Numbered from the stretch's first letter, positions 1,000 to 63,826 are shown. The stretch: 64,000 nt of DNA from Chiloscyllium plagiosum (GCF_004010195.1 NC_057751.1:13151659-13215658), one strand, 5' to 3'. Program-made: numbers and translations. Notes: generated from the sequence alone by a model not told the origin.

Positions 1000-1984
1000 C
1001 AAAGTTTATGCGAAGATTTGTAGCTCGGGTGCTCGTTGTGGTTCTGTTCGCCGAGCTGGGAATTTGTGTTGCAGACGTTTCGTCCCCTGTCGCGGTGACA
1101 TCCTCAGTGCTTGGGAGTCTCCTGTGAAGCGCTTCTGTGATGTTTCCTCCGGCATTTATAGTGATTTTGTATCTGCCGCTTCCGGTTGTCAGTTCCAGCT
1201 GTCCGCTGCAGTGGCCAGTATATTGGGTCCAGGTTGATGTGCTTATTGATTGAATCTGTGGAGGAGTGCCATGCCTCTAGGAATTCCCTGGCTGTTCTGT
1301 TTGGCTTGTCCTGTAATAGTAGTGTTGTCCCAGTCGAACTCATGTTGCTTGTCATTGGAGTGTGTGGCTACTAACGGAACGAGGACATGCCGCAACACAT
1401 ACATCAAGAGCATTTCCGAACTGACAGCCAGACTACTGCAACCACTAGGACTCATAACAGCACACAAACCAACAGCCATTCTCAGACAACTCACCAGGAC
1501 GAAGGACCCGATACCCAGCATGAGCAAAACCAATGTAGTGTACAAAATCCCATGCAAGGACTGCACAAAACACTACATAGGACAAACAGGGAGACAGCTA
1601 GTGATCCGCATCCATGAACACCAACTAGCCACAAAACGACATGACCAGCTATCCTTAGTAGCCACACACTCCAATGACAAGCAACATTAGTTCGACTGGG
1701 ACAACACTACTATTATTGGACAAGCCAAACAGAACAGCCAGGGAATTCCTAGAGGCATGGCACTCCTCCACAGATTCAATAATAAGCACATCGACCTGGA
1801 CCCAATATACCGGCCACTGCAGCGGACAGCTGGAACTGACAATCGGAAGCGGCAGTTACAAAATCACTATAAATGCCGGAGGAAACATCACAGAAGTGCT
1901 TCACAGGAGGCTCCCAAGGATGTCACCTGGACAGGGGACGAAACGTTTGCAACATATGATCCCAGCTTGGCGAACAGAACCACA
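1000..1984. mobile_element. Penelope-like element (Poseidon/Penelope type), inverted arrangement with GIY-YIG fragment
   Basis: + arm ~1374-1984 encodes NVVYKIPCKDC..YIGQTGR..RIHEH..REFLEAW; - arm 1000-~1373 is an inverted copy of its 3' part; 13-bp TSD ATAAAATGAGCTT at 987-999 and 1985-1997. Confidence 0.9.
1071..1110 (-). ncRNA. Minimal hammerhead ribozyme motif in PLE pseudo-LTR
   Basis: gca-CUGAGGA-ugucaccgcgacaggggac-GAAAC-GUC-ugc. Confidence 0.75.
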
Positions 1985-2765
1985 ATAAAATGAGCTTACT
2001 AGGGTAAAGCCACTTCAGAACAATACACTGACAGACTTGACTGAACAGGACATAATGACTGAATTACTAAATGAGAGCAGTGACAGGTACAGGTGACTTC
2101 TTGGTAAACGTTTTTCCTTCCCAATAGGTTGTTCAGAATGATCTAGCAGTTACTGCAGTTTCTCCATGGGGAAATCTTCAGGAAGTACATCAATAAGTTC
2201 AACTAGTCCAGAGGATTATGAAATGACCAGGAACAAAATTCTTCAAAGGAGATAGGGTAACTTCAGAGTTGAGGGATCTGGACCAGACGGTTTGTATTAT
2301 TTAGTGAAAACTAGTTATCAGCTAATGGGAGGCTTCTTAAGTTGGCAGACAATGCAATGATGGCAGATGCCTAAGCACCCTTTAGCGCCCAAGAGTAAAG
2401 ATTAAAGCCTGTAGGATAGTGGATTCTTTTTCCACCATCAAGTCAATCATAAGGTTGATCTTTTAATGCTCAGCCCAAAGTAAGTGAATCTCAGGCTTCA
2501 AAATGTTCAGATTTTTAAAAAGGTCATTACCTAAAGGATTACAAATATTCCATGGGTGAATATACCAACAACTGATACATCAGCCTATCTTGGACATGTT
2601 AACTGTTGCATGCAAACTATTCATTGGATAACATTTGTTGAAGGCAAATGCTATTTGATATCTTGGCTCGGATTTTTGAATACTCAGCAGGTTAGTGGCA
2701 AGACTGATAGGACATTGTGATTTGCCAATGAAAGACATACTGATACAGTGAGAACAAAAAAAAAG

Positions 2766-2853
2766 GCTGAAAATGTGTTGCTGGAGAAGCACAGCAGGTC
2801 AGGCAGCATCCAAGGAACAGGAGAATTGACGTTTCGGGCATAAGCCCTTTCTG
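2766..2853 (-). mobile_element. Neptune-type PLE 3' terminal fragment with damaged hammerhead core
   Basis: Same unit as 50323-50413 and 54148-54236. Confidence 0.75.
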
Positions 2854-2944
2854 AACAAAAAAGGCAGCAAATGATATAATAGTTAAGAGGATGCAAGTCA
2901 CATGAAGGATTCCAAAGACTAACCTATTAAAATACTGTGTATGT

Positions 2945-3045
2945 GTCAGTTCTGAAGAGTCATCACTGGACTCAATGTTAACTGTACTTCATCTGTACAG
3001 ATGCTACTAGACTCATTCCACTCCTCCAGCGATTTGTTTTTGTAA
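2945..3045 (+). mobile_element. Old degenerate PLE terminal repeat
   Basis: CTGAAGA...acagatgct...ctccagc...ttgtttttg resembles right arm of 42171-42400. Confidence 0.45.
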
Positions 3046-3903
3046 CAGTTCTTTGCTATTTATAGTTAGTACTAGAAACTCAAGCATCACAAGGTTCACT
3101 GACCACAAGCCAAAGACCGATTCATAAATTTAGAAATTTGACTCTTCTTCAAAAAGGGATGCACCAATGAATAAAGCGGACAGGATTTGTCTCAAAAATT
3201 TAAGAATGGACTGGAAGACAGAATGACCATACAGACAATACTAAAAAAGGAAATCACTTTTTCAGTGGTTGTATTAAGAAATGCTGACTGTATCACCAGA
3301 CAAACTTCAAACCAGAGGCTTGAAGTCCATTCTCTTGATGAATTATTACTCATGACATTTCACATGCAGGTGAACAGTGCAGCTCACGTAATAAGTCAGC
3401 AACAAATTTTGCCAGGACCTGCAGTGAAGAGCAATTTAAAAAGGAGATCAACAGTCAGTTATTCATTCATTCATTCATTCATTCAATCAGCCCATTACAT
3501 CTGCACCCTGTGCACTAGATCCCACTAAGTTGGGACAACATGTCAGAAACAATAGTGATTCTTACGTCCCACCTAAGGCAGCAGTGTATTTCAAATTTTA
3601 AACTCATGTGCCACCTAACATTTATTGCCCCTGGTCATTTCATACCTTTTCTCACCTGCATAATCATATTCAGCCATTCATGAAAATTATGTACGCTGTG
3701 CACTATTAACAGAAACCTAGTGCAATTCACATCTGCAAATAAAATGTACAGCAGCAGCATCTTCCAATGTCCTTGCTTCTCCAGGCAAGATCAATTGCAC
3801 AAGTGTGAAGTTGGCAATCATGTACAGAAATTCAGGGACTAAGTAGGGCTCCACATGAGCCCTGAAGAAAGCTTGTCCTGTTCACATATTTCTGAAATTA
3901 CAC

Positions 3904-15676: not shown

Positions 15677-15974
15677 TAGAATCCTTACAGTGTGGAAACA
15701 GGATTTTGGCCCAACAAGTCCACTATGAACCTCTGAATAGTAACCCACACAGACCCATTCCCTTACCCTATTACTCTGCACGTCGCGTGCCGAATGTATC
15801 TAACCACCATGATAGGCAATTTGGTACAGCCAATTCACCTGACCTGCACGTCTTTGTACTGTGGAAGGAAACCTGAGCACCCAGAGGAAACTGACAGTCA
15901 CTGGAGGCTGGAATTGAACCTGGTTCCCTGATGCTATGAGGCAGCAGTGCTAACCACTTAGCCATCATGCCACC
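15677..15974 (-). mobile_element. HE1-type tRNA-derived V-SINE (diverged, internal deletion)
   Basis: A/B-box head, V-domain and CR1-like tail similar to 62101-62425. Confidence 0.85.
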
Positions 15975-17345: not shown

Positions 17346-17359
17346 CAGAGATAGATACA

Positions 17360-17530
17360 CAAGGAAGAAAGAACACAGCAAGTCAAGTAGTACAATGTGG
17401 AGAAGTCGACACTGAAGAACAGTTACACCCGAAACATTGACTTCACCTCCCAATCCTCCATAACTTGCTGTGTTCTTCCAGCCTCATGCTAGACTACCTT
17501 GCATTCCTGCATCTGTCGTTTCTGTCTCTG
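17360..17530. mobile_element. Degenerate palindromic PLE-derived element with hammerhead-like core on + strand (17412-17438)
   Basis: CTGAAGA-acagttacaccc-GAAAC-ATT; same family as 61891-62010. Confidence 0.6.
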
Positions 17531-21808: not shown

Positions 21809-22573
21809 CGGTGGAAACTCGATTATCTGAATGAGATGGGCGGGCACTATTTCGTTCGGATAATCGATTATTCGGAAAATCGATTATTCGGAAAATCGAT
21901 TTAAGTGCCTTCTGGGGCTTGGAGTTTTAAAGTCTGCTCCCCGTTCAGGAGACTCTCAGCAGCACACATTGCATGATACCCAGCCCCCAACACTGATGCT
22001 GCCTGAATTGCTGTGCTCTTCCAGCACCACTAATCCAGAAACTGCCTACCCCTGCCCAGCAATGCCCCCCCCCCCAACCCCTACTCCCCCACCCCCCAGG
22101 TCCAGCACAGCCCCCCAACCTGGTCCAATTCTGCCCCAGCACAAAGCGCGCAAGCCCCTGCCACCCCTCCCCTCTCCAGGGCATCCAGACTGCACACCAA
22201 CAACAAGACTGCTGTAGCTGCCTTTGTGGGGTAAGTCTCCACATAGCGCTCTCTCTCTCACACAGACACAGACACACACACAACTTTTTACTGCAAATTT
22301 TTGACAGGTTCCACATTTGCCCTGCACATGACAATGTCGGAGAGATTATTCCTGGGAAGCGGGAGGGGGTTAGGGTACACCCCTCTGTAGAACTCCAGGG
22401 AAAGGGTGGGAGGTCAGTCATTTGGAGACTGTGTCTGTTTAATCACTGTAAACAAAAGACGCCATCACTGTTGGAAACACGTCTTTGATGTAATATTTCT
22501 ATCAGGACCTCAAGATCTCCTTCGGGTAATCGATTTTCGGATAATTGGTATTCAGGCAATAGAGGTTCCGCTC
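21809..22573. mobile_element. pogo/Tigger-like non-autonomous DNA transposon
   Basis: TA flanks; imperfect ~23-bp TIRs (16/23 match; CGGTGGAAACTCGATTATCTGAA); subterminal TCGATTATTCGGA repeats. Confidence 0.65.
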
Positions 22574-22975
22574 TAGTGGGTTTGGAATGTGCTGTCCAAG
22601 GACCTGTGATTTTCTGCAGTGCACATACTACTGCTGAGTGTTGATGGTGGAGAAAATGAAGGACAGTCAAGCTGCTTTGTCCTGGATGGTGTCAAGCATC
22701 TTGAGTATTGTTGGAATTGCACTCATCCGTCGTACGTCTGACATGCGCCTTTATAGATAAGTGAATTTTCTTCAGTCGTCGGGTTTGAGAACTTGCATAC
22801 ACAACAGATAAAATTACAGGAGCCTTCAAAAAGAGCTTAAAAGCTTGTCTGCAATTAACTGATCTGTTTGAAAAAGTGAACATTTCATTTTCTCACTGAC
22901 AACCACTCTTCCACCCCAAAAAAAAGTATTTTGTGTGAAGAATCGCTGGTGATGAATGATTTACTTGCATTTCAG

Positions 22976-23142
22976 TGGGAATCGAAGTAACAGAACTTTC
23001 AAACCAAAGAAGAACATTCCGGAAGGTTCCCATCAATATGAGCTGCTAAAGCATGCTGAAGCAACCTTGGGAAGCGGTAACCTTCGTCAAGCTGTTATGT
23101 TACCAGAAGGCGAGGATTTAAATGAATGGATTGCTGTCAATA
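22976..23142 (+). CDS. MOB1A: MOB1A exon 2
   Basis: GNRSNRTFKPKKNIPEGSHQYELLKHAEATLGSGNLRQAVMLPEGEDLNEWIAVN; AG/GT. Confidence 0.96.
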
Positions 23143-24410
23143 GTAAGTGTCTGAAACTTGAATTTTACCTGTCTGTCTGCCCTTTTCTGAAAGTTTGAGT
23201 CCAGAGATCCTATTGCACACCTGTGAACCCAGTGGGACTTGAACCCTAGTCTCCTGATAGAGGTAGGGTCACTATAATTGCACTCTGACATTCCCTGCCC
23301 TACTTTTTCATCACTGTCATTGCCCCATATCACCTGCCTGGGTCCTTAACTCTAGAATGCTCTTGACAAAGCGTTTTTTAAGGCTTTCATTAACACCTAT
23401 CACTTTGAACAATCTTCTTACATTCTTAATTAAGCATTTGGATGTCAACCTCTCTTGTGCAATGTTCTTGGGACATTGCACAAGATTAACTACTTGTAAA
23501 CAGAAAGCATCTTTGTTTTCTATCTTACTGTTTCCCACATATGGCTTAAATTTGGCACTCAAGATGTATATTGTGCAAGGACGTGACTTTTTCTTGCAAA
23601 GGCTGTAAGAAAAACATGTAGTGAAGATGCAGCTTAACAGTTACAAAACTGAGACTTCCAAAAACCCATGTTTGTTATTTCCTTTATAAACTTCTGTAGA
23701 ATTCAAACAATGCTTCATTTTTTTTTGAATGGTGGTCACCCTTTTTTCCTGTTATAAAACAGTACCTGAGCAATCTTTATCAGATTCTTTTTCCGTATTC
23801 TGTATTTATTTTCCATTCCCCAGTTTCCCTTTTTTAAAAGGAGTATTTGTTTAATTGTTCTGGAAGAGGTAAATCTGTTTCCTTGAATTAAGGGACAAAA
23901 TTTTCCTGTCCTCAGATTGTTGGAGACTAGACATATGGCCGTCAGGCCCCTTCAGAAGTACTTGTGTGGATCCACATGGCAAGTTTTATCTTGTGATGAT
24001 ACATTCTAATGTTTCCTGGGTCCCTCTGTGAAAGGCTGTTAGTCTAAGCTGAAGTGCGAGACTTCAGACACTTTGTAGTGACTCAGGAATTTTTGATTGG
24101 CCACTTCAAGAACTAGACGACAATATCAGAAGTGACCCAACTTGACTCTCACACTCTTTGTTCTTCCCCTTCTCCTCCTTTCCAACAGACCACCCCATCT
24201 TCCCCAATCATCACCACCAGCAGTCTCAAAATGAGCACTTATTGTTGGTATTTATAAAATGACCACTTTATTTTAAATGTTAGTTTTTATATCAAGAGGT
24301 GCTAAAATGGACCAGGGCCTGAAATGTAATCAAAGTTTGATAACATCAGCATGGCCTCCAAACTAAAGTAGAAATGAATATTTAATTGTTTCTGGTTCTT
24401 TTATTTTCAG

Positions 24411-24504
24411 CTGTAGACTTCTTCAACCAAATCAACATGCTGTATGGAACAATAACAGAGTTTTGTACAGAACAAAGCTGTCCTGTGATGTCAGCAGGAC
24501 CAAG
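24411..24504 (+). CDS. MOB1A: MOB1A exon 3
   Basis: [36 protein letters not shown]. Confidence 0.96.
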
Positions 24505-24861
24505 GTAGGGAAGATCCTATACACCCAGAACAAAATTTTCCGAGAAATGATTAGATAAAATAAGGTTGATGGTGACAACATGCTGGAAGTATCTGTTAGA
24601 CTCCAAAATGCTTCCAGCTGTCATGATGAAATGTTTTGCGAGCCCAAACATATCTTTCAATTTAATGACTAAAAAGTGAATAAGGACTTCGAATTTACAC
24701 CGAGAAATTTAAAAAGCATCTTGTAAATTAACCAAGATTGGTATTGATTTTACCTTAAATGTTCAAATTCCAAAACTAATTCTAATAGTTGACATTTATT
24801 GGCCGCCTCCTGCTCAAGCTTTGTAATAAGTCAGGTACTGAACAAACTTGAATCTCATAAT

Positions 24862-24913: not shown

Positions 24914-27699
24914 TTTTTATTTGACAATTCCTTTCTTCCTTTGTCTTTGCCCACCTTCCACCAAAGAACTTTTACAGAAGCATTGCAGTTTTCATCTTGT
25001 TAGGTAGTCTCTGTCCACTGGGTCAACTTATGTTACACAGGCATGGTCCCAATTAATCTTGGAGCTGCTGAGTATGAAGCACTACCTGTCAATTTAGATT
25101 ACAGTGAATAGCTATGTAGTTTCAAACTGGAGGGATTTCTCATTGTTCAGCAGTCTGCATTGATTGGATTTGCAGACATTGATCTTCCTGTTTTCAATCT
25201 CTGTATTTAGTCAGAACAGCATAAAACACAGGAACTTGCATTTCCAAGACCCTGACAAGTAATGTGGTTTTGAGGCAGTTTCATAGAACTGAAGTAAGTT
25301 TATCTTAATTTAAATAGTGATTCCTTTTGAACTCTAATGCAGACAGGAAAAGACCATTTCTTTCAAAATCTCACTTTAATTTTTACCCCTCGTTTACGAA
25401 CGATCTTTATTGCCACATTAATGTTCTGATGTTGCACCAGATGGAAACAAGCTTTTTGCTAATGTTGGTCCTTCAAGCTTTGGAGCCCTACAGTACAAAG
25501 ACAGGCCCTATGGCCCAGACTGGTCAATACCAGCCAAAATGTCCATCCATGCAAAACCCATTTCCTTGCATTTGGCCCATGTCCTTCAAATCCTTTCCAA
25601 TCCATATATTTATCCAAATGCCTTTTAACCGCTTCCACTGGCAGCTCATTCCATTTGTGTACCACCCTCTGTGTTAAAAAAAGAAGGTCCCTAAGGTTCC
25701 CTTTTATTCTTTCCCCTCTAACCTTAAACTGATGCCCTCTAACCCTCGAATTCCCCAACCCTAGCTAAAATTCTGAGTGCATTCACCCTATCCATGCCCC
25801 TCCTGACATAAACATCTCCCAGGTACCCCCTCATTCTCCTGCACTCTAAAGAGAGGTCCCAGCTTGTCAAACCTCTCCTTAGAACTCAGACCATTGAGTC
25901 CAGACAACATCCTTGTAAATTTCTTCTGCAGTCCTTCCAGCTTAATAAAATCTTTCTTATAACAAGGAACACAAACTGAACACAATACTGTGTACAGCAC
26001 CGTGTATACATAACTTCCCAACTTCTATTCTCAGTGCCCTGACTGATGAGGGCAAGTGTGCCAAAAATCTCCTTCACTGCCCTATCTACCTGTGACTCCT
26101 CTTTCAGAAAACTGTGAACCTGAACTCCAAGGTGCCTCTGTTCCATTACACTCCTTAAGGCCCTACCATTCACAATGAAACTCCTACCTTGATTTGATTT
26201 TCCAAAATGCAAGACCTCACTCTTAAATATATTAAATTCCATTTGCCATTTCTTGGCCTACGTCCCCAGCTGATCAAGGTACTGCTGCAATATTTGAAAA
26301 CCTACCTCGCTGTCCGTGATACCGCCGATTTTAGTGTCATCAGCAAACTTACTAATCATGCCCTGTACATTCTCATTCAAATCATTGATATAGGTAACCA
26401 ACAGCATTGGGCCCAGCACTGACCCCTGAGGTACTCCACCATACACAGGCCTCCAGTCTGACAAGCATCCTTCCTACCATCAAGCCAATTGTATATCCAA
26501 TTTGCCAGCTTGCCCTGGATTCCATGCAATTTAACTTTCCAGGACAGCCTACTATGTGAAACCTTATCAAAGGCATTACTTCTACAGCTATGCCCTCATC
26601 AACCTTCCTGGTCACTTCAGCAAAGAACCATAAGAAATTTGTCAGGCATGATCACCCACTCTCAAAGCCATGCTAATTATTCTTGATCAAACCATGTCTT
26701 TCCAAATGCATGTATATCTTATCCCTCAGAATCTTCTCAAGTAACTTACCCACCACAGATATTAGGCATACTCGTCTATAGTTCCTAGGCTTCTCTTTAC
26801 AGCTCTTCTTGAATAATGGCACAAGATTCGCTACTCCTTCAAGTCTTCTGGGACCTTACCTGTGGCTATCGATGATGCAAACATATCAGCCAGGGCCCCT
26901 GTAAATTCTTCCCTAGCCTCTTGCAATGTTCTTGGATATGTTTGGTCAGGACCAGGAGATTTATCCACCTTCATAAATTTTAATACATCCAATACCTCAC
27001 CTGCTGTGATATGGACTGTCTCCAAGATATCACCACTACCTTCCCCAAGTTCCCAAGTCTTCATGGTAAACACAGGAGAAATATTCTTTGAGAACCTCGC
27101 CCATCTCCTGCAGTTCTCCACATACATGTCCACTTTGGTCCTTGAGGGACCCTATTCTCTCTCTACTTATTCTTTTTCCTTTAATTTATTTAAAGTACCT
27201 CTTTGGATTACCTGAATTTTCTCACCCAAGGCTTTCTCATACCCCCCTTTTGCCCTTCTGATTTCTTTCAGTCAACTCATCTATTTTCTGTGTACCTCCA
27301 GGAATTCCCTTGAACCCAGCTGCCTGTACCTGAGCCACACCTCTTTTGTACTGCTCAATATCTCATCACCCAGGGTTCCCTATTCCTGCCAACATTGCCC
27401 TTCACCCTCACAGGAACATATAGGTATTGAACTCTATCTATCTCACTTTTAAAATCCTTCCACTTGCCAGAGGTCCCTTTGTCTGCAAGCTCCAGTCTAA
27501 TTCCATCAAAATTCGCCTTGCCCCAATTTAGAACTTGAACCTGTGGGCCAGTTTTGTCTTTCTCCATAACTATTTAAAGATTAACAGAACAATGGTCACT
27601 GGTCCCAAAGTGCTCCTCCACTGTCACCTCAGTCACCTTTCCTGTCCTATTTCCCAAGAGAAGGTCGGGTTTTGCCCCTTCCCGAGTAGGATCCTCTAC

Positions 27700-37917: not shown

Positions 37918-38092
37918 ATGGTCTTGTTCCATTCTTCTCCCTGGTCACCCACGAACTGCAGTTTTTGTTCAAGTTGTGATGTCTCTTCAAGTTGATTTTT
38001 AGCATTAACTATTAAAATGTACAGTTGATTTTATAAATCTGAATCTTTGAAGCTTTTCCATGTTATAATTCATGATAACTGTTACATTGCAG

Positions 38093-38256
38093 GAGTGCCC
38101 TTCCCTAAAAATTTCATGTCTGTGGCCAAGACCATTCTTAAGCGTCTCTTCAGAGTTTATGCTCATATTTATCACCAGCATTTCGACTCTGTGATGCAGC
38201 TTCAGGAAGAGGCCCATCTTAATACTTCCTTCAAGCACTTCATATTTTTTGTTCAG
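38093..38256 (+). CDS. MOB1A: MOB1A exon 5
   Basis: GVPFPKNFMSVAKTILKRLFRVYAHIYHQHFDSVMQLQEEAHLNTSFKHFIFFVQ; AG/GT. Confidence 0.96.
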
Positions 38257-41900: not shown

Positions 41901-42720
41901 TCTTCAATCACATGTTTATCTGATGTATCCTGCTATTTTGACTTTGACTAACACATGACACTGGTGGTAATCCTGAGATCACTACCTTGGAGATTCTTTT
42001 TCCTGATTTACTTCCTTACTCCCATTTTTCTGCTCTTGGGGCGTATGTGTTTTTTTTTCTTTTGTAACTGATATGATATATACCAAGACCACTGTTTACT
42101 CTGCCCCTCCAGAATGTTCTGCAGCTGCTCTGAGACACCTTTGACACCAGCATCAGGGAGGCAACATACCATGAACAAAAACAGAAATTGGTGGAAAACT
42201 CAGCAGGTCTGGCAGCATCTGTGGGGAGAAAACAGAATTAACATTTCGGGTCCAATGATCCTCCTTCGGTTCAGTTGTGGAGGGTCACTCGATGTGAAAC
42301 ATTACCTCTGCTTTCTCTCCACAGATGCTGCCAGACCTGCTGAATTTTTGCAGTAATTTCTGTTTTTGTTTGACTTCCAGCATCTGCATTTTTTGTGGTT
42401 GTTTAGTGAGCCAATATACTGGACAAGAGTCTTATTTGCAGGCAAAGAAATCTCTGTCTATTCTTTTTACAATTGAATCCCATGGAAGTATTGCATTCAC
42501 ACATTTGTTGTTTGTCCTATATGCAGCAGAGTCAACCATGTTGCATTGATTTTGAATGTTGCTCCATTCCTCTGAAAGGCCACTCCTGTCAACAGTATCC
42601 AAAGTGGTATATCTGTTTTGTAGGGGAACAGCCAAGACATTCGTGCACGACCTGCCTGGTTCTGTTGCTCAACCTAGTGGTTACCCATTTCCTTCCTGCC
42701 TGTGGAGTCTGAGCCTGTGA
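38905..42720 (-). mobile_element. Old degenerate CR1 LINE(s), mosaic
   Basis: Minus remnants LVRPHLEYC, APE (SLWIELRN), second RT piece ~41250-41700, ORF1 (VPLQNRYTTL, DSIVKRIDR). Confidence 0.75.
42171..42400. mobile_element. Older palindromic PLE-derived element with decayed hammerhead cores
   Basis: Arms AACAAAAACAGAAATTG...CAGCAGGTCTGGCAGCATCTGTGG and CCACAGATGCTGCCAGACCTGCTG...TTTCTGTTTTTGTT; tail TCCAGCATCTGCA on right arm only. Confidence 0.75.
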
Positions 42721-43699: not shown

Positions 43700-43810
43700 C
43701 AAGTCAAAACCGACATTGCTGGAGAAACTCAGCAAATCTGGCAGCATCTGTGGGGAGAGAAAGAGTTCATGTTTCAGGTCTGGTATGACTTGTGTAAAAC
43801 TGAGAGGAGC
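43700..43810 (-). mobile_element. Degenerate PLE terminal fragment
   Basis: TTGCTGGAGAAACTCAGCAAATCTGGCAGCATCTGTGG matches left arm of 42171. Confidence 0.6.
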
Positions 43811-44426: not shown

Positions 44427-44843
44427 CTCAGTAGTGAGCAAAGTCAACAAGGCACAATCTAAACACAGCAGGAGTGTTGTAATCAAGTGAAGGACGGTGA
44501 TTGTGTGATACAATTGTTGATCTTGAATCCCAAAAGCTGTAAAGTGGTGAAGTTTTTTAAAAAAAAAACCATTGTGTTCTTTCTCCAGCTTGCATTGAGC
44601 TTCATTGGAACAAGTTTTAGTTAAATGGGGTTATCAAATGAAGCATTTTACTTGAAAGTGTCCTTAAGAGCCCAGGGATAAGTCTGTATAAATCTGTTCA
44701 GCTCACGTAGAGCTTTGAGACTTGAGGAATCATTCATATTTTTGTTCCAATAGCATATACTTCAGCTTTTGGTTGGTTTATTTCTGCTAATATTTTTGAC
44801 AATCCATCTTGTTCTGACTAAGTTTTCTCCTCTTCCCTTTCAG

Positions 44844-44921
44844 GAATTTAATTTGATTGACAGGAAAGAGCTTGCTCCACTCCAAGATCTAATTGAAAAG
44901 CTTGGATCAAAAGACAGATGA
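44844..44921 (+). CDS. MOB1A: MOB1A exon 6 (coding part)
   Basis: EFNLIDRKELAPLQDLIEKLGSKDR*; polypyrimidine-CAG acceptor. Confidence 0.96.
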   Translation, partial: EFNLIDRKELAPLQDLIEKLGSKDR

Positions 44922-47224: not shown

Positions 47225-47545
47225 AGAATATAGATTCCCTACAGTGTGGAAACTGTAGCTTCGGCTCAACAAGTCCTCACCAACCCTCCGAAGAGTAACC
47301 CACCCATTTCCCCAATCCTACTACTCTACATTTACCCCTTACTAATGCATCTAATGTACATGCCCCTGAACACTATGGGCAATTTAATATGGCCAATTAA
47401 CCAAACCTGCACATCTTTGGATTGTGGGAGGAGACCGGAGCACCCTGAGGAGACCCACGCAGACACAGGGAAAATGGGCAAACTCCACACAGACAGGCGC
47501 ACGAGGCTGGAATCCCTGGCGCTGTGAGACACCGTGCTGCCCATT
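47225..47545 (-). mobile_element. HE1-type SINE
   Basis: Similar to 62101-62425. Confidence 0.85.
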
Positions 47546-48439: not shown

Positions 48440-49948
48440 TAGAGTCATAGAGGTGTACAGCACGGTAAAAGACCCTTTGGTCCAACTCGTCCAAGCCGAC
48501 CAGATATCCCAACACGATCTGGTCCCATCTGCAAACACCCGGCCCATATCACTCCAAACCCTTCCTTTTCATATCCCATCCAGATGCCTTTTAAATGTTG
48601 CAATCATACAAGCCTCCACACTTTCTCTGGCAGCTCATTCCATACACATACCACCCTCTGGGTGGAAAAGGTTGTCCCTTAGGTCTCTTTTATATCTTTT
48701 CCGTCTCACCCTAAACCTATGCCCTCTAGTTTTGAACTCCCCCACCCCAGGATGTTTGTCCGATTCATGCCCTTCATGATTTTATAAACCTCTATAAAGG
48801 TCACCCATCAACTTCTGAAGCTCCAGGGAAAATAGCCACAGCCTATTAACCTCTCCCGAGAGCTCAAATCCTTGTAAGTCTCTTCTGAACTCTTTCAAAT
48901 TTCACAACGTTTTTCCAATAGGAAGGAGACCACAATTGCACGCAATATTCCAAAAGTGGCCAAACTAATGTCCTGTACAGCCACAACATGACCTCCCAAC
49001 TCATGTACTCAATACTCTGACCAAAGGAAAGCATACCAAACGCCATCTTCACTATCCTATCTACCTGCGACTCCACTTTCAAGGAGCTATGAACCTGCAC
49101 TCCAAGATCTCTTTGTTCAGCAACACTCCCTAGGACTTTACCATTAAGTGTATAAGTCCTGCTAAGATTTGTTTTCCCAAAATGCAGCACCTCGCATTTA
49201 TCTAAATTAAAGTCTATCTTCCACTTCTCAGCCCATTGACCCATCTGATCAAGATCCCGTTGTGATCTGAGATCACCTTCTTCGCTGTCCAGTACACCTC
49301 CAATTTTGGTGTCATCTGCAAACTTACTAATTATACCTCTTATGCTCACATCCAAATCATTTATATAAATGACAAAAAGTAGTGTATCCAGCATCGATCC
49401 TTGTGGCACTCCGCTGGTCACAGGCCTCCACTCTGAAAAACAACCCTCCATCACCACCCTGTGTCTTCTACCTTTGAGCCAGTTCTGTATCCAAATGGCT
49501 AGTTTTCCCTGTAATCCATGAGATCTAACCTTGCTCACCAGTCTCCCATGGGGAACCTTGTCGAACACTTTACTGAAGTCCATATAGATCACGCGCACCA
49601 CTGTGCCCTCATCAATCCTCTTTGTTACTTCTTCAAAAAAACTCAATCAAGTTTGTGAGACATGATTTCCCACGCACAAAGCCATGTTGACTATCCCTAA
49701 TCAGTCCTTGCCTTTCCAAATACATGTACATCCTGTCCCTCAGGATTCCCTCCAACAACTTGCCCACCACCGAGGTCAGGCTCACCGGTCTATAGTTCCC
49801 CGGCTTGTCTTTACCGCCCTTCTTAAACAGTGGCACCACGTTTGCCAACCTCCAGTCTTCCGGCACCTCACCTGTGACTATCGATGATTCAAATATCTCA
49901 GCAAGAGGCCCAGCAATCACTTCTCTAGATTCCCACAGAGTTCTCGGG
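48440..49948 (-). mobile_element. 5'-truncated CR1 LINE, RT domain
   Basis: ORFs 48864-49646 and 49633-49920: NYRPVSLTS, QHGF, DFSKVFD, GVPQGS, FADDTK. Confidence 0.95.
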
Positions 49949-49997: not shown

Positions 49998-50106
49998 AGG
50001 CCAGGCAGCATCCGAGGAGCAGGAGAAATCGACGTTTCGGGCATAAGCCCTTCTTCAGGAATGAGGCTGGTGTGCCAAGCGGGCTGAGATAAAATGTTGG
50101 GGGGGG
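49998..50106 (-). mobile_element. Neptune-type PLE fragment with intact hammerhead motif (50031-50058)
   Basis: Minus: CUGAAGA-A-GGGC-uuau-GCCC-GAAAC-GUC; matches 54180-54275. Confidence 0.8.
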
Positions 50107-50322
50107 AAATATATTGATGCTAATTTCTTTGCATCGTTCCACATTGTTTTGTGACTGCTAATTCAATCCCGAATCATTATTTCAAGAAGTTTCTTTCCAC
50201 CAAACATGAGCTGACAACCCCAGCAATTAGGCCTATCTTCATACCCTAGTTCCAAAAATATTGGAAAGTTTTCAACTGTGCAATTCAAATCTCTATTCTT
50301 GCACGAGTCTATACCTGACATG

Positions 50323-50911
50323 AGCTGAAAATGTGTTGCTGGAAAAGCGCAGCAGGTCAGGCAGCATCCAGGGGACAGGAGAATCGACGTTTCGGGCATA
50401 AGCCCTTCTTCAGGCATGAGGAAAGTGTGTCCAGCAGGCTAAGATAAAAAGGTAGGGAGGAGGGACTTGGGGGAGGGGCATCGGAAATGCGATAGGTGGC
50501 AAGAGGTCAAGGTGAGGGTGATAGGTCAGACTGGGGTGGGGGCGGAGAGGTCAGGAAGAAGATTGACCTGCATATCCTTGGTGGAGTGGGAGGGGGAGTT
50601 GAAGTGTTGAGCCACAGGGTGGTTGGGTTGGTTGGTTGGTCCGGGTGTCCCAGAGGTGTTCTCTGAAATGCTCCACAAGTAGGCGGCCTGTCTCCCCAAT
50701 ATAGAGGAGGACACAGCGGGTGCAGAGGATACAATAGATGATGTGTGTGGAGGTGCAGATGAATCTGTGGCAGATATGGAAGTTTCCTGAAGAAGGGCAT
50801 GTGCCCGAAACGTCGAATCTTCTGTTCCCTGGACGCTACCTGACCTGCTGCGCTTTTCCAGCAACACATTTTCAGCTCTGATCTCCAGCATCTGCAGACC
50901 TCACTTTCTCC
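50323..50911. mobile_element. Neptune-type PLE, inverted arrangement, GIY-YIG remnant and two hammerhead motifs (50386-50413 minus, 50787-50814 plus)
   Basis: Minus translation CTSTHIIYCILCTRC..LYIGETGR..EHFREH...VAQHFN; 15-bp TSD TCTATACCTGACATG at 50308-50322 and 50912-50926. Confidence 0.9.
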
Positions 50912-50954
50912 TCTATACCTGACATGTTTGACGTTGAGGCTAGTGTATTTTTTT

Positions 50955-53752: not shown

Positions 53753-53779
53753 GTAAAACAGAAAAAAAGCAATTCTCAT

Positions 53780-54100: not shown

Positions 54101-54147
54101 TGAAATTACTATTATTCTTTGGAAAGTTGGTTTCAAAAGTAGTGGGC

Positions 54148-54930
54148 TGAAAAATGTGTTGCTGGAAAAGTGCAGTAGGTCAGGTAGCATCCAAGGAGCA
54201 GGAGAATCGACGTTTCGGGCATAAGCCCTTCTTCAGGAATGAGGAGGGTGTGCCAAGCAGGCTAAGATAAAAGGTAGGGAGGAGGGAGGGGCATTGGGAA
54301 TGTGATAGGTGGAAGGAGGTTAAGGTGAGGGTGATAGGCCGGAGAGGGGGTGGGGGCGGAGGGATCGGGAAGAAGATTGCAGGTCAAGAAGGCGGTGCTG
54401 ACTCCGAGGGTTGGGACAGAGATAAGGTGGGGGGAGGGGAAATGAGGAAGCTGGAGAAATCTGCATTCATCCGTTGTGGTTGGAGGGTGCAGCGGATGCA
54501 GTAAATGATGTGTGTGGAGGTGCAGGTGATTTTGTGACGGATATGGAAGGATCCCTTGGGGAGGGGGGACATGTGGGTGCAGGTTTTGCATTTCTTGTGG
54601 TTGCAGGGGAAGGTGCCGAGAGTGGAAGTTGGGTTGGTGGGGGGTGCGGACCTGACGAGGGAGTTGCGGAGGGAGTGGTCTTTCCGGAACGCTGATAGGG
54701 GAGGGGAAGGAAATATATCCTTGGTGGTGGGGTCTGTTTGGAGGTGGCGGAAATGACGAAGGATGATACGATGTATGTGGAAGTTGATGGGGTGGTAGGT
54801 GAGGACCAGTGGGTTTCTGTCCTGGTGGCGATTGGAGGGACGGGGTTCAAGGGCGGAGGAGCGGGAAGTGGAGGAGATGCGGTAGAGAGCATCGTCAACT
54901 ACGTCTGAGGGGAAATTGCGGTCTTTGAAG
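54148..54930 (-). mobile_element. Neptune-type PLE 3' fragment with intact hammerhead motif (54209-54236)
   Basis: Minus translation ...PLVLTYHP...AFRKDHSLRNSLVRS...GTFPCNHKKCKTC...CTSTHIIYCIRC (Cys-rich linker then GIY-YIG start); 11-bp TSD AAGTAGTGGGC at 54137-54147 and 54931-54941. Confidence 0.88.
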
Positions 54931-55194
54931 AAGTAGTGGGCCTTGGTTTGTGATACTTTTGTTCTGTGAAGGTGGCTTTTCTTCCAAATGATTCAATCCA
55001 CTTTCTTTGCAGTTGGTTAAAACAGCACTTCCAAAAATAAAACAGACTTTTTTTTTCATCCAGAATTGCTCTTACACACAGCTGTACATTTTTTTCCATC
55101 ACAGTCCTCTTTTTTTCATCTACCAGCCACCATCAACAAGTCACCAGTGTTATCCCATTGATTAATTTACATATGCAGTTGGTTCAAGGCAATG

Positions 55195-55680
55195 CAGTTA
55201 AAAATCACACCACACCAGGTTTTTGTCCAACAGGTTTATTTGGAAGTACAAGCTTTTGGTGCGCTGCTCCTTCGAGCTAGTGGAGCAGGCTAACCGGACA
55301 CAGACTTTTTTGTAAAAGATCAAAATGTGATATAACTGATGCGATGTATTGCACAAACCTAGATTGCTGTTAAGTCTTTAATCATTTAGAATGGGTTGCA
55401 TGTTTTGATTCATTAATATGTAAATCCAAGAGATTTAAGTCACATTCCTGAGATAATTTAAGGTTTTACTAAAAAAAGTGTCATCTCAGCTCAGACAATG
55501 CATTACAGGTGGGAGGTTAAAGTCTGTCTGTATTCCAATCTTGAGTCAGATTGGGTCTATTTCCAAATGAGGAATTTATAAAATATCACATGGATTGACT
55601 ACCTACAGATTGTGTGCTATTTAAACAAAATAGAGTGTATTTGCTCCAGTCACATTACCATTCTGCCAACACCTCTCCAG
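55195..55680 (-). mobile_element. Probable third PLE-derived repeat (3' terminal part)
   Basis: Minus: GAAGGAGCAGCGCACCAAAAGCTTG...AAATAAACCTGTTGGAC; resembles a common shark repeat as recalled; extent approximate. Confidence 0.4.
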
Positions 55681-56399: not shown

Positions 56400-59300
56400 G
56401 CTTCTTCCACCCCTCAAAATCAAATTCAGAGCCTGGAGCATTAGAACCCTCTTGGATAAACTCAACAGCAACAGACCTAAACAGCCATACTGTTACTGTT
56501 GCCCAGGAGCTCAGATCTTTTGAATTTGACTTTGGCATTGCCACCCTAATGAGATCTGATAGTTAGGGGAAGGAACAAGGTGTGGTTACACCTTTTAGAA
56601 AGGTTAATTAGAAGAACACTGCCACCTGTCGTGGTTGTGGGTATGTTTGCTGAGCTGGGATGTTGATTTGCAGAGTTTCATCCCCTGTCTCGGTGACATC
56701 TTCAGTGCTTTGGAGCCTCCTGTGAAGCACTGTTCAACCGTGTCATCTGGAATTTACTTAATTCCATTTCCCGCTGCTTCCGATTGCCAGTTCTGCTTTT
56801 TCATTGTTGTGGCCAGTATATTGGGTCTCGGTCAATGTGCTTGTTGATGGCTAAGTGTCATTCTTCTAAAACTTCTCTGGCTGTCCTATGTTAAGCTTGT
56901 CATGGGATCGTTGTGTTGTCCCAGTTGAATTTGTGGTCCTTGACATCTGTGTGTGTGGCTACTAGGGACAGCTGGTCCCTAGAGAAGCTGCATTAGGACC
57001 CTGTTCAAAAGGTTACAACACTGTAACACTCCTGACCTACGAAGGAAAGAAGAATACCCCGACAGCGTATTCGCCAAGAACAGATATCCCCACAACTTCA
57101 TCCACACATGCCTAACAGACAAACAACATGATGACGACATGTCCTGACCTAACACACTAGCCACACTACCTTACATTAAAAAAGGTCTCTGAATTGACAG
57201 CTGGACTTCTCCAATCACTCAAAATCATGATAACCCATAAACCGACAACCACGTTCAGACAACGACTCAACAGGCCAAAAGACCCTATACCCATCATGTG
57301 CAAGACTAAAGTAATTTACAAGATTCCACGCAAAGACTGCATGAAACACTATGTAGGACGAACGAGCAGACAACTAGCAATCCGCATCCATGAACACCAA
57401 CTAGCCACAAAATGCCGAGACCAGCTGTCCCTGTTAGCCATACACGTAGAGAACAAGGATCACAGGTTCGACTGGGACAACACAGCAATCATAGGACAAG
57501 CTAAATGTAGGAAAGCCAGGGAATTTCTAGAAGCATGGCACTCAGCCACAGACTTCATCAATAAGCATATTGACCTAGACTCAATATACCGGACACAACA
57601 ATGGATAACCGGAAGCAGCAGAAATGGAACCAAATAAATTCCAGATGACACAGTACAGCAGTGCTTCACAGGAGGTTCCAAAGCAGTGAAGATGTCACCA
57701 AGACGGGGGACAAAACGTCTGCAAATCAACTTCCAGCTCTGCGAGCATACCCACAACCATTACAACATGCATCTGAGCTACAAATCTTTACACAAACTTT
57801 GAACACTGCGGCCAATTGGTGGGTTTTGCCATTAAAAACCACCTGGCTATCTTAAAGTTAGATCCCTCGGGGGACAAACAAACCCATGATGACCCTTCAG
57901 CTCATCCTTGCCAAGGACCACTGTTACAGTCCTCAGCACCTAAATGCCAACTCTGGTTGCAACAAATGCATTCAAAGAAAATGTTTGCACCAACTTTGAA
58001 TTGTTTCTGGTCAGAGTTTGAATGGGTGACAAACTGATCAGCATGGTGACATCAGTTCATAGTTGGGAAAGATACAGGCTTTGCGGAAATATAATTGGCA
58101 GAAAGGAGGTAGGGAAATCCACCAGCAGTAATATTGTGCTCTTAACAAAATATCCAGAACATAGTTTTACTATAACCAGCGAGTTGTTCCATCTGAGACA
58201 TAAACCTCATGGTAACACTTGCTTCAAGCAGCTGCTCGAAAACCAACACCTGTATGTAACACATGTGCTATAAGGGGAGTTGATGACCGTTGTCCAATTC
58301 GCTGTGTCCTCAACATCAGTATTGCTGCAAAGTTGCAACAATGATGCAGGAAAATTTACACTGAGACACACAAAGACCCTGATTATAGGTGCTTATCAAG
58401 GAGAAGTAGTCACTGTCTACATGCAGGAAAGAACAATTTTAAGATTTCTCTCTCTACTAGAGGCTCTGTCTTCAATTGGAGTGTGCTTAAATCGATCTTG
58501 CACTCTATTAACTGCCGCCATTTAAGCAGATCTCCAACCGAGCAAGATGTCTGAAAAGGTCATTCAACAGCTAAGGCTCAAGAACTAATAGAATCCAGGC
58601 CGAAGTACAAAAAATATGGTGTAATACCATGGGTAAACTACATGGTATAATTTCCGTTATTTGGAAGGAGGAGAGCATGCCAAGAAATACCATCTGTAAT
58701 TGTGATCATCAACAAGAATAATAAGTTCCCGACTCTGTAACTGCAGAGAAATTTCCTTGCTCTCAACTACAGATTGGCTAAAGAATCTTCAATTGTCTTC
58801 TCCCTGCGGCTGAAAGGCATCTTCCAGATTCCCAAGGTGCATTCTGTACTCAGAGGCACAATAGACACAACCTTTACCGTGCTGCAACTGCAAAAGCAAT
58901 GCAGGAAACAGCACCAATGCTTATTTATAGCTTTCTTTGACCTCATTAAGACCTTTGATAATCATGAGTGATTATAGAGCTTCCTCCTCTGCTTCAGCTG
59001 CCCCCAGAGACCATCCTCCGCCTGCATAGTGTTATGCAAGCTGTGATCCGAAGCAACAGATCCGCTACACCCTCAATTCACCAGGGTCAAGCAAATCTGT
59101 GTCATAACACTGATACATTTCTCAATCGTCCTTGTTCCAATGCTCCACCCTCATCCTCTTTAACTCCACAGTAGTGGAGAGCTTGATCAACAGAACAAAC
59201 AGGAACTGTTCAATCTTTCTCATCTTAATGCCAGATCCAGGGTTGTCTCATCCTCTGTCACTGAAGTACAGAACGCAGATGATGCTTGCACCTGCATGCA

Positions 59301-60300: not shown

Positions 60301-60712
60301 ATAGAACATAGAACATAGAAGAATACAGCGCAGTACAGGCCCTTTGGCCCTCGATGTTGTGCCGATCCAAGCCCACCTAACCTATACTAACCGACTATCC
60401 TCCATATACCTATCCAATGCCCGCTTAAATGCCCATAAAGAGGGAGAGTCCACCACTGCTACTGGCAGGGCATTCCATGAACTTACGACTCGCTGAGTGA
60501 AGAACCTACCCCTAACATCTGTCCTATATCTACCCCCCCTTAATTTAAATCTATGCCCCCTTGTAATACCCGACTCCATACGTGGAAAAAGGTTCACACT
60601 GTCATCCCTATCTAACCCCCTAATCATCTTGTACACCTCAATCAAGTCACCCCTAAACCTTCTTTTCTCTAATGAAAACAGCCCCAAGTGTCTCAGTCTT
60701 TCCTCATACGAT
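60301..60712 (-). mobile_element. Young CR1 3' end
   Basis: Open ORF2 C-terminus (SYEERLRHLGLFSLEKRR...WNALP); (TTCTATG)n tail. Confidence 0.92.
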
Positions 60713-61380
60713 CTGACTGACATTGTACGAGAAAAAGGCTGTCTTGAAGGTGGAGAAGGTATGGCTTAGCGTCAATTGCAACTTCAAGATTATGAACATT
60801 CTGATTTTATCTGGCACTAACTAGGAAGGGGGCAGGACACCTGAAGCGAATAGGTGGAATCTGAAGCAAACCAGCATGAATGAAATGTGAAAATGTGTAT
60901 CGATTTGAGAACTCATTTGCATTTGAATTGGGCCTTTTCTTAGCTCCTTAGCTCAGCCATATTAACATCCTGTTTTCACCTTTCCTGACCAGAAGAAATG
61001 GGGAAATGATGTGACAAATCTGTTAAAGTAACCATTTAATTGGTTCCTGTCAGGGATTGGAAGACTGAATAGTAAATTGATTCCTGTTGCTTCATCAATT
61101 GTAGAAATGGAACAGAAACTTGGAAACTTTGTTTTTGTACTCTTACTTCCATATCCTGCTGTGGTGTCTGAGTGAATTAACTGAAATGAAATTTTCCAAG
61201 GATGGGATAAAGGCCAACCTCTCCAATCAAGCCAGCATGGATAGAAATGGTTGAGGAAATGAACAGCAGATGTATGGTCCCTTGAATCTAGAGAAGAGTG
61301 CCTAATGAGCTTTAAGGTTATGAGGAAAGCAGAAAAGTTGAATGGCATACCACTTAACAGGTTTCACATCAACAAAGAAT

Positions 61381-61500
61381 TGAGGATGTTGGAGATCTGA
61401 AACAAAATCTGAAAATGATAGAGAAACTAAGCAGATCTGGCAGCACCTGTGGAGAGAAAAACAGTTAATATTTTGAGTCTAATGACTCTTTGACAGACTA
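61381..61500 (-). mobile_element. Degenerate PLE terminal fragment
   Basis: GCAGATCTGGCAGCACCTGTGGAGAGAAAAACAGTTAA matches the 42171 family. Confidence 0.55.
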
Positions 61501-61890
61501 AAAGTACCAATACTGGTATTAATGCTGACGGAGAATAAATGGAGATAGTGAACAGAGAGGGAGAAAAGAGAAGCAAATGAAGAATTGCCGATGATAAGCC
61601 AAAATATTGAATGGGAGTGAACAAGAAGTATGAATAACTTAAAATGGATTGGCTGTGCTGGAAGCAATCCATACAAGCCAGGAGCTGGGCAGGTGTAGGG
61701 GAGAACAAACATGGAAGAAGGTTTTCATGCTTTGAGGTTGTTAAACTCCTAAGTCCTAAGATCTGTTACATATCTAAATAGAAAATTATGTATTTGTTCT
61801 TCCGGCTTCCATTGTGCTGCGCTTGAGTACTGCAGCAGGTCTGAGACAGAAATATTGGCATGGGAACATGGTGGTGTATTGAAGTGACAT

Positions 61891-63290
61891 GAAAACTGCA
61901 GATGCTGAAATCCAAAGTAAACAGGCAGGAGGCTGGAAAAACACAGCAAGCCAGGCAGCATCAGAAGGTAGAGAAGTCGATGTTTCGGGTGTAACCCTTC
62001 TTCAGGACTGAGAGGGATGGGTGGAGGAGAAGTTGTAGATAAAGGGGGTGGCGTGGCAGGGTAGTGAAGTGGGGATAGGTCAAGACAGGTGGAGGTTACA
62101 ATTAGATTAGATTAGATTACTTACAGTGTGGAAACAGGCCCTTCGGCCCAACAAGTCCACACCGACCCGCCGAAGCGTAACCCACCCAGACCCATTCTCC
62201 TACATTTACCCCTTCACCTAACACTACGGGTAATTTAGCATGGCCAATTCACCTAACCTGCACATTTTTGGATTGTGGGAGGAAACCGGAGCACCTGGAG
62301 GAAACCCATGCAGACACGGGGAGAACGTGCAAACTCCACACAGTCAGTCGCCTGAGGTGGGAATTGAACCCGGGTCTCTGGCGCTGTGAGGCAGCAGTGC
62401 TAACCACTGTGCCACCGTGCCACCCACAATCTGATTGGTTAATGGGAGGAATGAATCCAGTTGATAGGAGGAATGAGTGGAAGGGAGGGGGAGGGGCTGG
62501 GAAGCGAGTCAGGATGGGAAGGGAGGTTATTTGAAATTGGAGAACTCAGTATTGAGTTCTCTGGGCTGTAGGCTGCCTAGGCAGAAGATGAAGTATAATT
62601 CCATCAATTTGTGGTTTTGTTTGGAGGCCAAGGATGATCATGTCAGAAAGGGAGTAGGAAGGGGAATTAAACTTGGCGGCAACTGGGAGGTCTGGTTGGC
62701 CCCCACAGGCCCAGCTGAGACGCTCGGTGAAATGTTCCCTTGGGAAATGTTCCCTCTGGAAGAAAAGCACATTGGGTGCGATGGAGGGTATGTGGCAGGC
62801 AAGTGGAAGCTCAGGGTCACTTTTATACGGATGGAGTGGAATTATTCCACAAAGCGGTTACCCAGTCTGTATTTTATGTGTCCAATGTAGAGGTCACCTT
62901 GTGAGCGCAGATTCAGTAGACTAAATTGAACAAAGTGCAGAATAAATTGCTACTTCACCTGGACTTTGAGGAGGAAGGAGCGAAACAGGCAAGCACCTTC
63001 TGCATTTGCATGGGATGGTGCATAAAGGTATGTAGAGGTGTTGAGAGTGGAAAAGGAGTGGACCTGGGTGTAATTCCAGGACAGCATGTGTAATGGAACC
63101 TCCAGCCATAGGTGATAATGGTGAGGGAACGTATTGTGCATGGCCACTGGAGCAATTGTGCTGGGAGCTCCATCAGGAAGTGATGATGGTTTGGAGGATG
63201 CCAGGCAGCCCAACTGGAGAAATCAATCTGACGGAAAGGATGTATTTTGGAGAAAAGAATCTCGAGGGGAGAAGGATCAGACAAAGGGAA
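61891..63290 (-). mobile_element. Diverged Neptune-type PLE with hammerhead motif (61979-62005), interrupted by an HE1 SINE
   Basis: Tail plus terminal repeat at 61891-62010; remnants PVAAKFNSP, IPCKCRRC further in. Confidence 0.7.
62101..62425 (-). mobile_element. Full-length HE1-type V-SINE
   Basis: Minus: A box TGGCACAGTGG, B box GGTTCAATTCC, V-domain TGTGGAGTTTGCACGTTCTCCCCGTGTCTGCATGGGTTTCCTCC, CR1-like tail, (TAATC)n. Confidence 0.92.
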
Positions 63291-63604
63291 TTCTTTAACC
63301 AGATGGAAACCAAAGGGTCTGGCTGTTTTGTGTTAAATTCTCTTCATGTTTGTCATGGCCTAATTCACATAGAATAAAGAATGGCTGCTTTATGATCTTT
63401 GGGTTGCCCATTTGTTCAAATCTCATGTTACATTTAATTGTCCCATGGCAATTGAGGCCAAACATGTAGAAATTTGGCTTTTGAATGCACTTTGAAGTCA
63501 TGCGTATATGAGTGATGGTGATGCCCTCAGATACACGTGTCACTTGATATGTAATGAACTGTACACTTTATCATCATTGGCAATCATTCACCAATGAATA
63601 CGTT

Positions 63605-63826
63605 GAGATTAGAGTGGTGCTGGAAAAGCACAGCAGGTCAGGCAGCATCCGAGGAGCAGGAAAATTGACATTTTGGGCAGGAGCCCTTCATCAGCCCTCC
63701 TGATGAAGGGCTCCTGCCCAAAACGTCGATTTTCCTGCTTCTCGGGTGCTGCCTGACCTCCTGTGCTTTTCCAGCACCACACTAATCTTGACTCCTAATT
63801 TCCAGCATCTGCAGTCCTCACTTTCG
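63605..63826. mobile_element. ORF-less palindromic Neptune-type PLE insertion, CUGAUGA subfamily
   Basis: ~90-bp inverted arms centred ~63697; tail on right arm; degenerate TSD CCAATGAATACGTTG / CCAAATGAGTACAGTTG. Confidence 0.82.

Follow-up and report, generated by a model that had tools for sequence, protein, structure and literature searches.

Minimal type I hammerhead motifs of Neptune- and Poseidon-type Penelope-like elements in the Chiloscyllium plagiosum genome, and the probable origin of their short copies

A 64,000-nucleotide stretch of the genome of the shark Chiloscyllium plagiosum (NC_057751.1:13151659-13215658, here called the window) contains a series of short motifs with the core of the hammerhead ribozyme, lying in repeats that resemble Penelope-like elements (PLEs), which raises the question of which elements carry these motifs, how so many short copies arose and whether the ribozyme acts at all. 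In our judgement these are probably minimal type I hammerheads of Neptune- and Poseidon-type PLEs, most copies being likely inert stubs, likely derived from uncut RNA. The label of ribozyme is justified by structure and, indirectly, by a small set of fusions to U6 RNA at the predicted scissile bond.

Motifs of the window and the elements that carry them

An earlier note, made from the sequence alone, had proposed seven intact motifs, at 1071-1110(-), 28469-28496(+), 50031-50058(-), 50386-50413(-), 50787-50814(+), 54209-54236(-) and 61979-62005(-). The order CUGANGA, one extra base, helix II, GAAA, NN and UH was recovered at all seven, with coordinates and strands unchanged. The accompanying description of stem III as a bare ACGU palindrome applies to six of the sites; at 61979-62005 the sequence reads ACAU and the palindrome is broken. 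Helix I comprises only 2-4 bp in the window motifs, the third pair being a U.U mismatch in the main family, and is damaged at 50386-50413. The copies previously listed as decayed all proved to be family members: that near 1915 lacks 7 nt of the core, those at 2830 and 28440 are 5'-truncated within it, those at 57683, 63668 and 63700 carry core substitutions, and the copy at 17412 keeps the core while helix II pairing is lost. Additional remnants were found at 21995, 43706, 55196 (a third family) and 61405. A loose descriptor matched the window nine times, against a mean of 1.0 and a maximum of 4 in 60 first-order Markov simulations, while a strict descriptor gave four matches against none in the simulations. 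Rfam models, against which the suggestion of a mostly unannotated set was compared, returned no hammerhead in the window at E<=5, and their weak microRNA matches there were dismissed as due to a hairpin and to chance.

The copies are listed below by family (A, including an A3 type, and B to D); positions within a copy are counted from C3, with the predicted cut at +28 in family A and +34 in family B.

1000-1984: Poseidon-type PLE insertion, an inverted 5'-truncated arm (minus strand, long tail) head to head with a plus-strand arm (short tail)
987-999 and 1985-1997: 13-bp target-site duplication of the 1000-1984 insertion
1071-1110, minus: minimal hammerhead of family B with an intact core; C3 is at 1107, the cut is predicted to fall between 1074 and 1073, and the foot of helix II holds the start codon
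1400-1861, plus: GIY-YIG endonuclease fragment of a Poseidon-type open reading frame (ORF); Pfam E=0.034, below cut-off; 78% to the reverse transcriptase-linked ORF of locus L247
1913-1950, plus: family B hammerhead, dead through a 7-nt core deletion
2766-2849, minus: family A stub, truncated in the core
2952-3050, plus: old family C remnant
17412-17514, plus: A3-type stub that keeps the letters of the core, with breaks in helix I, helix II and the palindrome
21995-22045, plus: family A, tail only
28344-28556: family A head-to-head pair, long-tail arm minus and short-tail arm plus, in a MOB1 intron; hairpin of ~85 bp
28327-28343 and 28557-28573: 17-bp target-site duplication of the 28344-28556 pair
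28469-28496, plus: minimal hammerhead of family A with an intact core and a cut predicted after 28496
42178-42366: family C head-to-head pair, decayed
43706-43780, minus: family C stub without a core
49998-50104, minus: family A copy, 3'-truncated, with the intact hammerhead 50031-50058
50323-50911: Neptune-type insertion, the minus arm with an endonuclease fragment and hammerhead 50386-50413, the plus arm a stub with hammerhead 50787-50814
50308-50322 and 50912-50926: 15-bp target-site duplication of the 50323-50911 insertion
54146-54992, minus: Neptune-type 3' fragment with Cys linker, endonuclease start, 3' untranslated region and the intact hammerhead 54209-54236
55196-55333, minus: decayed copy of family D, the AGCU palindrome family
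56629-57803: older Poseidon-type head-to-head insertion with a 9-bp duplication and mutated hammerheads near 56676-56705(-) and 57683-57717(+)
61405-61485, minus: family C stub, decayed
61932-62016, minus: A3-type copy; hammerhead 61979-62005 with intact core, 4-bp helix I and ACAU
63606-63828: family A head-to-head pair, G12 changed to A in both arms

Four head-to-head pairs of the window thus show clear duplications (13, 17, 15 and 9 bp) and a fifth an imperfect one. The motifs 50031-50058 and 50386-50413, both on the minus strand and antisense to MOB1, belong to independent insertions 355 nt apart and both have ACGU; this is the only place in the window where a dimer in cis would be possible, and one of the two has a damaged helix I.

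The motifs sit in the pseudo-long terminal repeats (pseudo-LTRs) of Neptune-type (Cys-linker) and Poseidon-type Penelope-like retrotransposons. A single ORF combining reverse transcriptase (RT) with a GIY-YIG endonuclease at the C-terminus was found at loci L242, L247, L248, L219 and L227, and L248 holds a whole unit of pseudo-LTR, ORF and pseudo-LTR, measuring 2,442 bp from hammerhead to hammerhead, with an inverted arm in front. The tracing of the carriers to such ORFs, together with the covarying helices described below, bears out the proposal of minimal type I hammerheads in PLE pseudo-LTRs.

Family B hammerheads of the window come after GIY-YIG fragments, and longer copies encode an RT (YVDD; RVT_1 E=8.6e-12, above cut-off) and an endonuclease, with no Cys linker between them. 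The stop codon of this ORF falls in loop II and its ATG at the foot of helix II, the latter being in frame with the long ORF in seven of the eight junction copies that keep it (25 loci examined); an apparent out-of-frame start in L248 was rejected as the artefact of a 1-nt deletion. Judged by sequence layout, family B is of the Penelope/Poseidon type, lacking the Cys linker and with an ORF that starts in the hammerhead. The ORFs that precede family A hammerheads contain YIDD and a CX4CX2C linker (L219, L227 and window positions 54384-54992), followed by the endonuclease. Since Neptune elements are defined by a CX2-5CxxC linker between RT and endonuclease (PMC8557442), family A would be Neptune-type in layout, although Nematis has the same linker.

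Families C and A3 have the 3' block in common with family A, while family D is separate, its ORF resting on one 28% match. The 5' part of the Neptune unit was represented by only one decayed copy (L180). GIY-YIG matches in Pfam were below cut-off only; the one family A ORF tested gave no Pfam match and was assigned from motifs by eye, and a search of the PDB with the element RT gave only a weak maturase RT match (E=0.049). A retrovirus-like RNase H fragment adjoins a hammerhead stub at L031 (132-1148, minus strand).

Constraint on the motif, decay and genome-wide abundance

Conservation between families was assessed on eight single-copy subfamily representatives. CUGA-GA, AAA and U16 do not vary among them, a single mutated copy departs at G12, and identity in the flanking columns is mostly 38-62%; the core is thus better conserved than its flanks, as the earlier note had anticipated, and a MAFFT alignment gave the same core. 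Pairs of both helix I and helix II change on both sides across families, a covariation that is a pattern rather than a probability, the representatives being related families. All families have, beyond A9 and an extra base, a helix II of 4-6 bp that includes G10.1-C11.1 and differs in sequence between them (B1 has one A.G mismatch), and helix I keeps its first two pairs with three or more pair types and totals 2-4 bp. The palindrome is ACGU in seven representatives (families A, B and C) and AGCU in one (family D).

Within family A the core is intact in 68 of the 124 copies that reach it, 48 of the 124 keeping ACGU too, and G12, which lies in a CpG, is changed in 20%; selection therefore acted mainly on active elements, and inserted copies mostly decay, mainly at CpG. 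Many motifs lie in head-to-head hairpins. The pair 28344-28556 in the MOB1 intron folds at -163 kcal/mol with both of its motifs buried. Homodimer folding was uninformative, the catalytic dimer being absent from minimum-energy folds at most sites.

Genome-wide, sequence patterns were counted across 3.56 Gb. The generic core with ACGU gave 168,966 matches against 2,013 for the reversed pattern. Exact matches numbered 31,178 for a family A 29-mer and 7,492 for a family B 33-mer, and the family D pattern gave 6,518, the controls being 0 in all three cases. The strict descriptor found 24 matches in 60 unselected 10-kb tiles on six contigs (549,450 called bases), which extrapolates to ~150,000. The window itself is typical to within a factor of two, with six matches against 3.0 expected from the genome mean (Poisson P=0.08). 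The suggestion of a very large set of ribozyme motifs in this genome is supported where motifs are concerned and not supported for working ribozymes. The count overstates the number of active ribozymes, since copies are eroded by mutation at CpG, only a few stand in tandem and many form head-to-head hairpins; most copies are probably inert. A compatible neighbour on the same strand within 3.5 kb, in the same tile, was found for only 8 of 49 intact motifs. A retrozyme organisation, meaning tandem repeats with a hammerhead per unit, was rejected on this count and by the lack of any such array in the window.

Probable origin of the short copies and possible cleavage in cells

The short copies measure ~90 or 125 nt and have inserted independently, with target-site duplications, either singly or head to head. 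Of the copies whose motif is near-intact, 217 in number, 87 are paired with an inverted arm, 74 belong to the long class and 56 are stubs with unique flanks, and a 7-17 bp duplication was present in 28 of these 56 (found by script and counted by eye, a few being doubtful). Their 3' ends fall into two groups ~35 nt apart. Of 75 head-to-head pairs, 63 have exactly one long tail, 11 have none and one has both (expected 37, 24 and 14). The same architecture, with a 30-40 nt tail at one end, an inverted truncated arm and pseudo-LTRs, is seen in L248 and the window pairs. At L358 (near 1500, minus strand) a junction links an inverted family A arm straight to a family D hammerhead, which may reflect a template switch between families.

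The 5' ends were examined in 180 family A copies chosen by the 3' block only (from the tiles, the window, neighbours and 30 search loci). Ends at -7 to 0 account for 53 copies and ends at +26 to +31 for three, and 63 copies reach more than 20 nt upstream of C3; per nucleotide these ends occur at 6.2% (-7 to 0), 0.3% (+26 to +31) and 0.4% (-99 to -21; Fisher P=5e-15). The idea that insertions begin at the cut site was rejected on these numbers. A TTATC box occurs at -34 to -36 in 17 of 23 family A references, and the base at -4 lies inside TCATTC, which we take to be like the initiator (Inr) consensus. The commonest 5' end of family D is at -8 (7 of 89), 32 nt behind TATAAA. In 60 of the 100 family A copies listed the first base comes after an extra G (by eye; 27% expected), and in family D this holds for 7 of 7 copies and for 8 of 10 of a second, overlapping selection; no target-site duplication was found in the 24 family D copies checked. 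Drosophila Penelope has an internal promoter (PMC2377424). From ends that cluster ~30 nt behind a TATA-like motif, in many cases with an extra G in front, we infer that uncut, capped RNA was copied by run-off at its capped 5' end.

A quite different origin for this hotspot would be the chemistry of insertion: an endonuclease preferring (G)ATT, joining of cDNA through microhomology with the ATT that lies just upstream of the core, or an RT pause after unwinding of the ribozyme, none of which involves a transcription start. Many duplications do end in GAT or ATT overlapping the first bases of the element, and the anole enzyme prefers ATT (PMC11167929). However, the GATT at +28 to +31 attracts only 3 of the 180 ends, and family D clusters at another sequence (ACA at -8), again ~30 nt behind TATA and after a G, so that we regard this explanation as unlikely, even with family B, discussed below, in its favour.

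The stubs could also be self-propagating units like retrozymes or short interspersed nuclear elements (SINEs), with their own promoter, ribozyme and RT-binding site, copied in trans. Their very high copy number and own duplications would fit, as would the argument that animal retrozymes derive from PLE pseudo-LTRs (bioRxiv 10.64898/2026.07.22.740005) and the abundance of stub sequence in RNA reads of both strands. Yet the window holds no tandem arrays of the unit, the stubs lack the upstream TATA-like box, subfamily variants are common to stubs and long copies, and RNA from both strands also fits read-through from host transcripts; we consider this origin improbable. The reads in question are single-cell poly(A) reads, mostly 90-99% alike to the elements and perhaps from a related species; they are sense-biased for Poseidon, for which priming on A-rich stretches may be a source, and near-balanced for family A.

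Evidence bearing on cleavage itself comes from U6. A genome search with the U6 3' end gave 31 matches, of which 30 were fetched. Four U6 3' ends, in four sequence variants with different flanks, continue into family A exactly at +28, and one is joined to family B exactly at +34, in one arm of an inverted pair. These five junctions among 31 U6 3' ends all fall at the predicted scissile bond, and no other junction with a PLE was seen. Rfam confirmed U6 at three of the five fusion loci, the other two holding only a short 3' piece of U6. Hammerhead cleavage leaves a 5'-OH end. RtcB joins U6 to RNA ends of this kind (PMC6789731). Fusions at the scissile bond are unlikely to have arisen by chance, because ordinary copies rarely end at the cut site, and they suggest that the ribozyme sometimes cuts in living cells.

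Three chimeras of U6 and PLE (L316, L325 and L339) are head-to-head inverted insertions with U6 at the centre. At some 11 of the 31 loci (L322, L323, L324, L326, L329, L330, L337, L338, L341, L342 and L345) a common head of the GGGCAGCAC/GGGTGGCAC type comes within a few bases after the U6 3' end, near position 1500 and, in L342, near its match. This head resembles the start of a tRNA-derived SINE; such loci are either short U6-like pieces within a SINE or chimeras of U6 and SINE. Five further loci (L332-L334 and L343-L344) are full-length U6 genes in a tandem cluster, ~350 bp to 2 kb apart.

The same junctions bear on the view that the motif has lost catalysis in these families and persists in another capacity (protein binding, promoter or coding), its hammerhead appearance being a relic. 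Weak helix I, unfavourable folds and templates that are mostly uncut are in keeping with a relic, as is the double duty of the family B motif in encoding the end and the start of the ORF, and hammerhead mutants left insertion in vitro unaffected (PMC11167929). Compensatory changes across coding and non-coding families alike, together with five fusions of U6 to exactly the predicted bond, spread over two clades of different sequence, make this view very improbable in our opinion.

Returning to copying of uncut, capped RNA, the life cycle may be pictured as follows. The element RNA would begin where helix I has its 5' edge, 4-8 nt upstream of the core, and the PLE protein would initiate reverse transcription internally, at one of two sites ~90 and ~125 nt downstream. 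Priming on the 5' pseudo-LTR of the RNA would run off the capped end and give a stub, while priming of both target strands, one from each RT start site, would give a head-to-head pair in which one tail is long and the other short. In the active element the ribozyme is likely to work and may cut a minority of transcripts, aided by a second copy or by the PLE protein; cleavage of a reptile PLE hammerhead needed the protein of the element (PMC11167929). In Poseidon the cut would part the start codon from the ORF. Such cleavage would be partial and take place in the germ line, and inserted copies would then decay, mainly at CpG. For the specific account in which hundreds of thousands of stubs are complete copies of the first 90-130 nt of capped, uncut RNA, pairs stem from two-strand priming at the two RT start sites and germ-line cutting, of which the U6 fusions would be the evidence, acts as a switch that strips part of the RNA of its cap and, in Poseidon, of the start codon as well, we see reasons for belief and for doubt in about equal measure.

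A number of observations weigh against this picture. Family B has no sharp cluster ~30 nt behind its TATA (none of 112 ends at -27 to -17 and nine at -40 to -28, in a sample enriched for long copies), a point in favour of insertion chemistry. In stubs with clear duplications the extra G usually lies within the duplicated target, making target preference or microhomology possible, and some extra Gs derive from the inverted partner. The RNA reads are 3'-biased with no pile-up of ends, from a library type in which neither a start nor a cut would be visible. The main family has a weak helix I, and the catalytic shape is mostly missing from minimum-energy folds of short monomers and homodimers. The evidence for cleavage at these motifs is indirect, coming from junctions in genomic sequence, and the commonest family A subfamily gave no U6 fusion under a strict pattern. 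Finally, in a gap-free alignment of 108 of the 124 family A copies, non-CpG core positions diverge by 3.9% against 5.5% for comparable flanks (P=0.05), so that the core is slightly better kept than strict neutrality would have it, the flank set including subfamily differences.

Genomic surroundings and relation to known systems

The host gene of the window is the following.

22956-44918, plus: MOB1-family gene, coding exon frames 22956-23195, 24386-24505, 33483-33743, 38029-38313 and 44754-44918

Pfam Mob1_phocein was matched in the three exons tested. Beyond the end of the window by ~14 kb, the last exon of a TET-family dioxygenase gene encodes 632 residues (L029 3575-5470, minus strand). Fragments of CR1-type long interspersed nuclear elements (LINEs), with an esterase-like ORF1 and RT, lie at 25554-27215, 34042-37680 (in which there is an assembly gap, 35733-36497), 48451-49947 and 60382-60765, and a second dispersed repeat, like a SINE or LINE tail and unrelated to the hammerheads, at 15705-15891, 27681-27947, 47231-47513 and 62113-62374. 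Nothing suggests a host role for the PLEs, and intronic hairpin pairs such as that in MOB1 could be putative substrates in the form of double-stranded RNA.

The minimal PLE hammerheads published so far show poor cleavage in vitro and are dispensable for insertion there. The ~10^5 dated insertions present here make the transcript start of PLEs, the formation of inverted arms and ribozyme cutting in cells testable, and Rfam-style scans miss what is possibly one of the largest sets of hammerhead motifs in a vertebrate genome, most copies of which are probably inert. A literature search of partial coverage found no relevant work on Penelope hammerheads or the other features described here in sharks, or on chimeras of U6 with Penelope ribozymes.

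The motif class is known, being the minimal PLE hammerhead of Cervera and De la Peña 2014 (PMC4209133), and the copy number is above that given in the main text of that paper. As there, the motifs are of type I with a palindromic remnant of helix III, a short helix I and an extra base between A9 and G10.1; several consensus families occur per genome, and most motifs are single and derive from truncated PLEs, with some pairs on opposite strands. In contrast, ~169,000 core matches were obtained here as compared to ~4,000 in coelacanth and ~9,000 in Xenopus, the descriptors differing, and helix II of family A is only 4 bp; the main-text part covered mentions no cartilaginous fish.

The closest functional parallel is the Anolis Poseidon element PAc (Frangieh et al. 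2024, PMC11167929), whose ORF likewise starts at helix II, with the cut site 26 nt after the start codon as against 28 nt here. In PAc the tail is set by a pair of internal RT start sites, cutting and extension take place on both target strands, and uncut RNA is the main template, all of which is also proposed here. Unlike the present analysis, that work was performed in vitro on one element, and RNA-seq ends were absent from the cut site; neither the stub class nor the 5'-end hotspot nor the U6 fusions feature in the part covered.

The PLEs described by Craig et al. 2021 (PMC8557442) and Arkhipova et al. 2013 (PMC3846280) also have head-to-head arms with a tail at one end, duplications of ~8-10 bp, solo pseudo-LTRs, and a TATA and Inr-like motif in the pseudo-LTR. 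Solo pseudo-LTRs lack duplications in those accounts, where they are ascribed to recombination or deletion, whereas many have them here, and the tail asymmetry is counted here (63/75).

The U6 fusions resemble the chimeras of U6 and LINE-1 that arise through RtcB ligation, a reaction requiring a 5'-OH (Moldovan et al. 2019, PMC6789731), in joining the U6 3' end and its T run to retrotransposon RNA, but the LINE-1 junctions vary in position and all five PLE junctions coincide with a single predicted bond. Non-LTR retrozymes (Li et al. 2026, bioRxiv 10.64898/2026.07.22.740005) similarly carry type I hammerheads related to those of PLE pseudo-LTRs; the survey sampled one chondrichthyan genome, and retrozymes are tandem repeats, in contrast to the dispersed, single or inverted copies of C. 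plagiosum.

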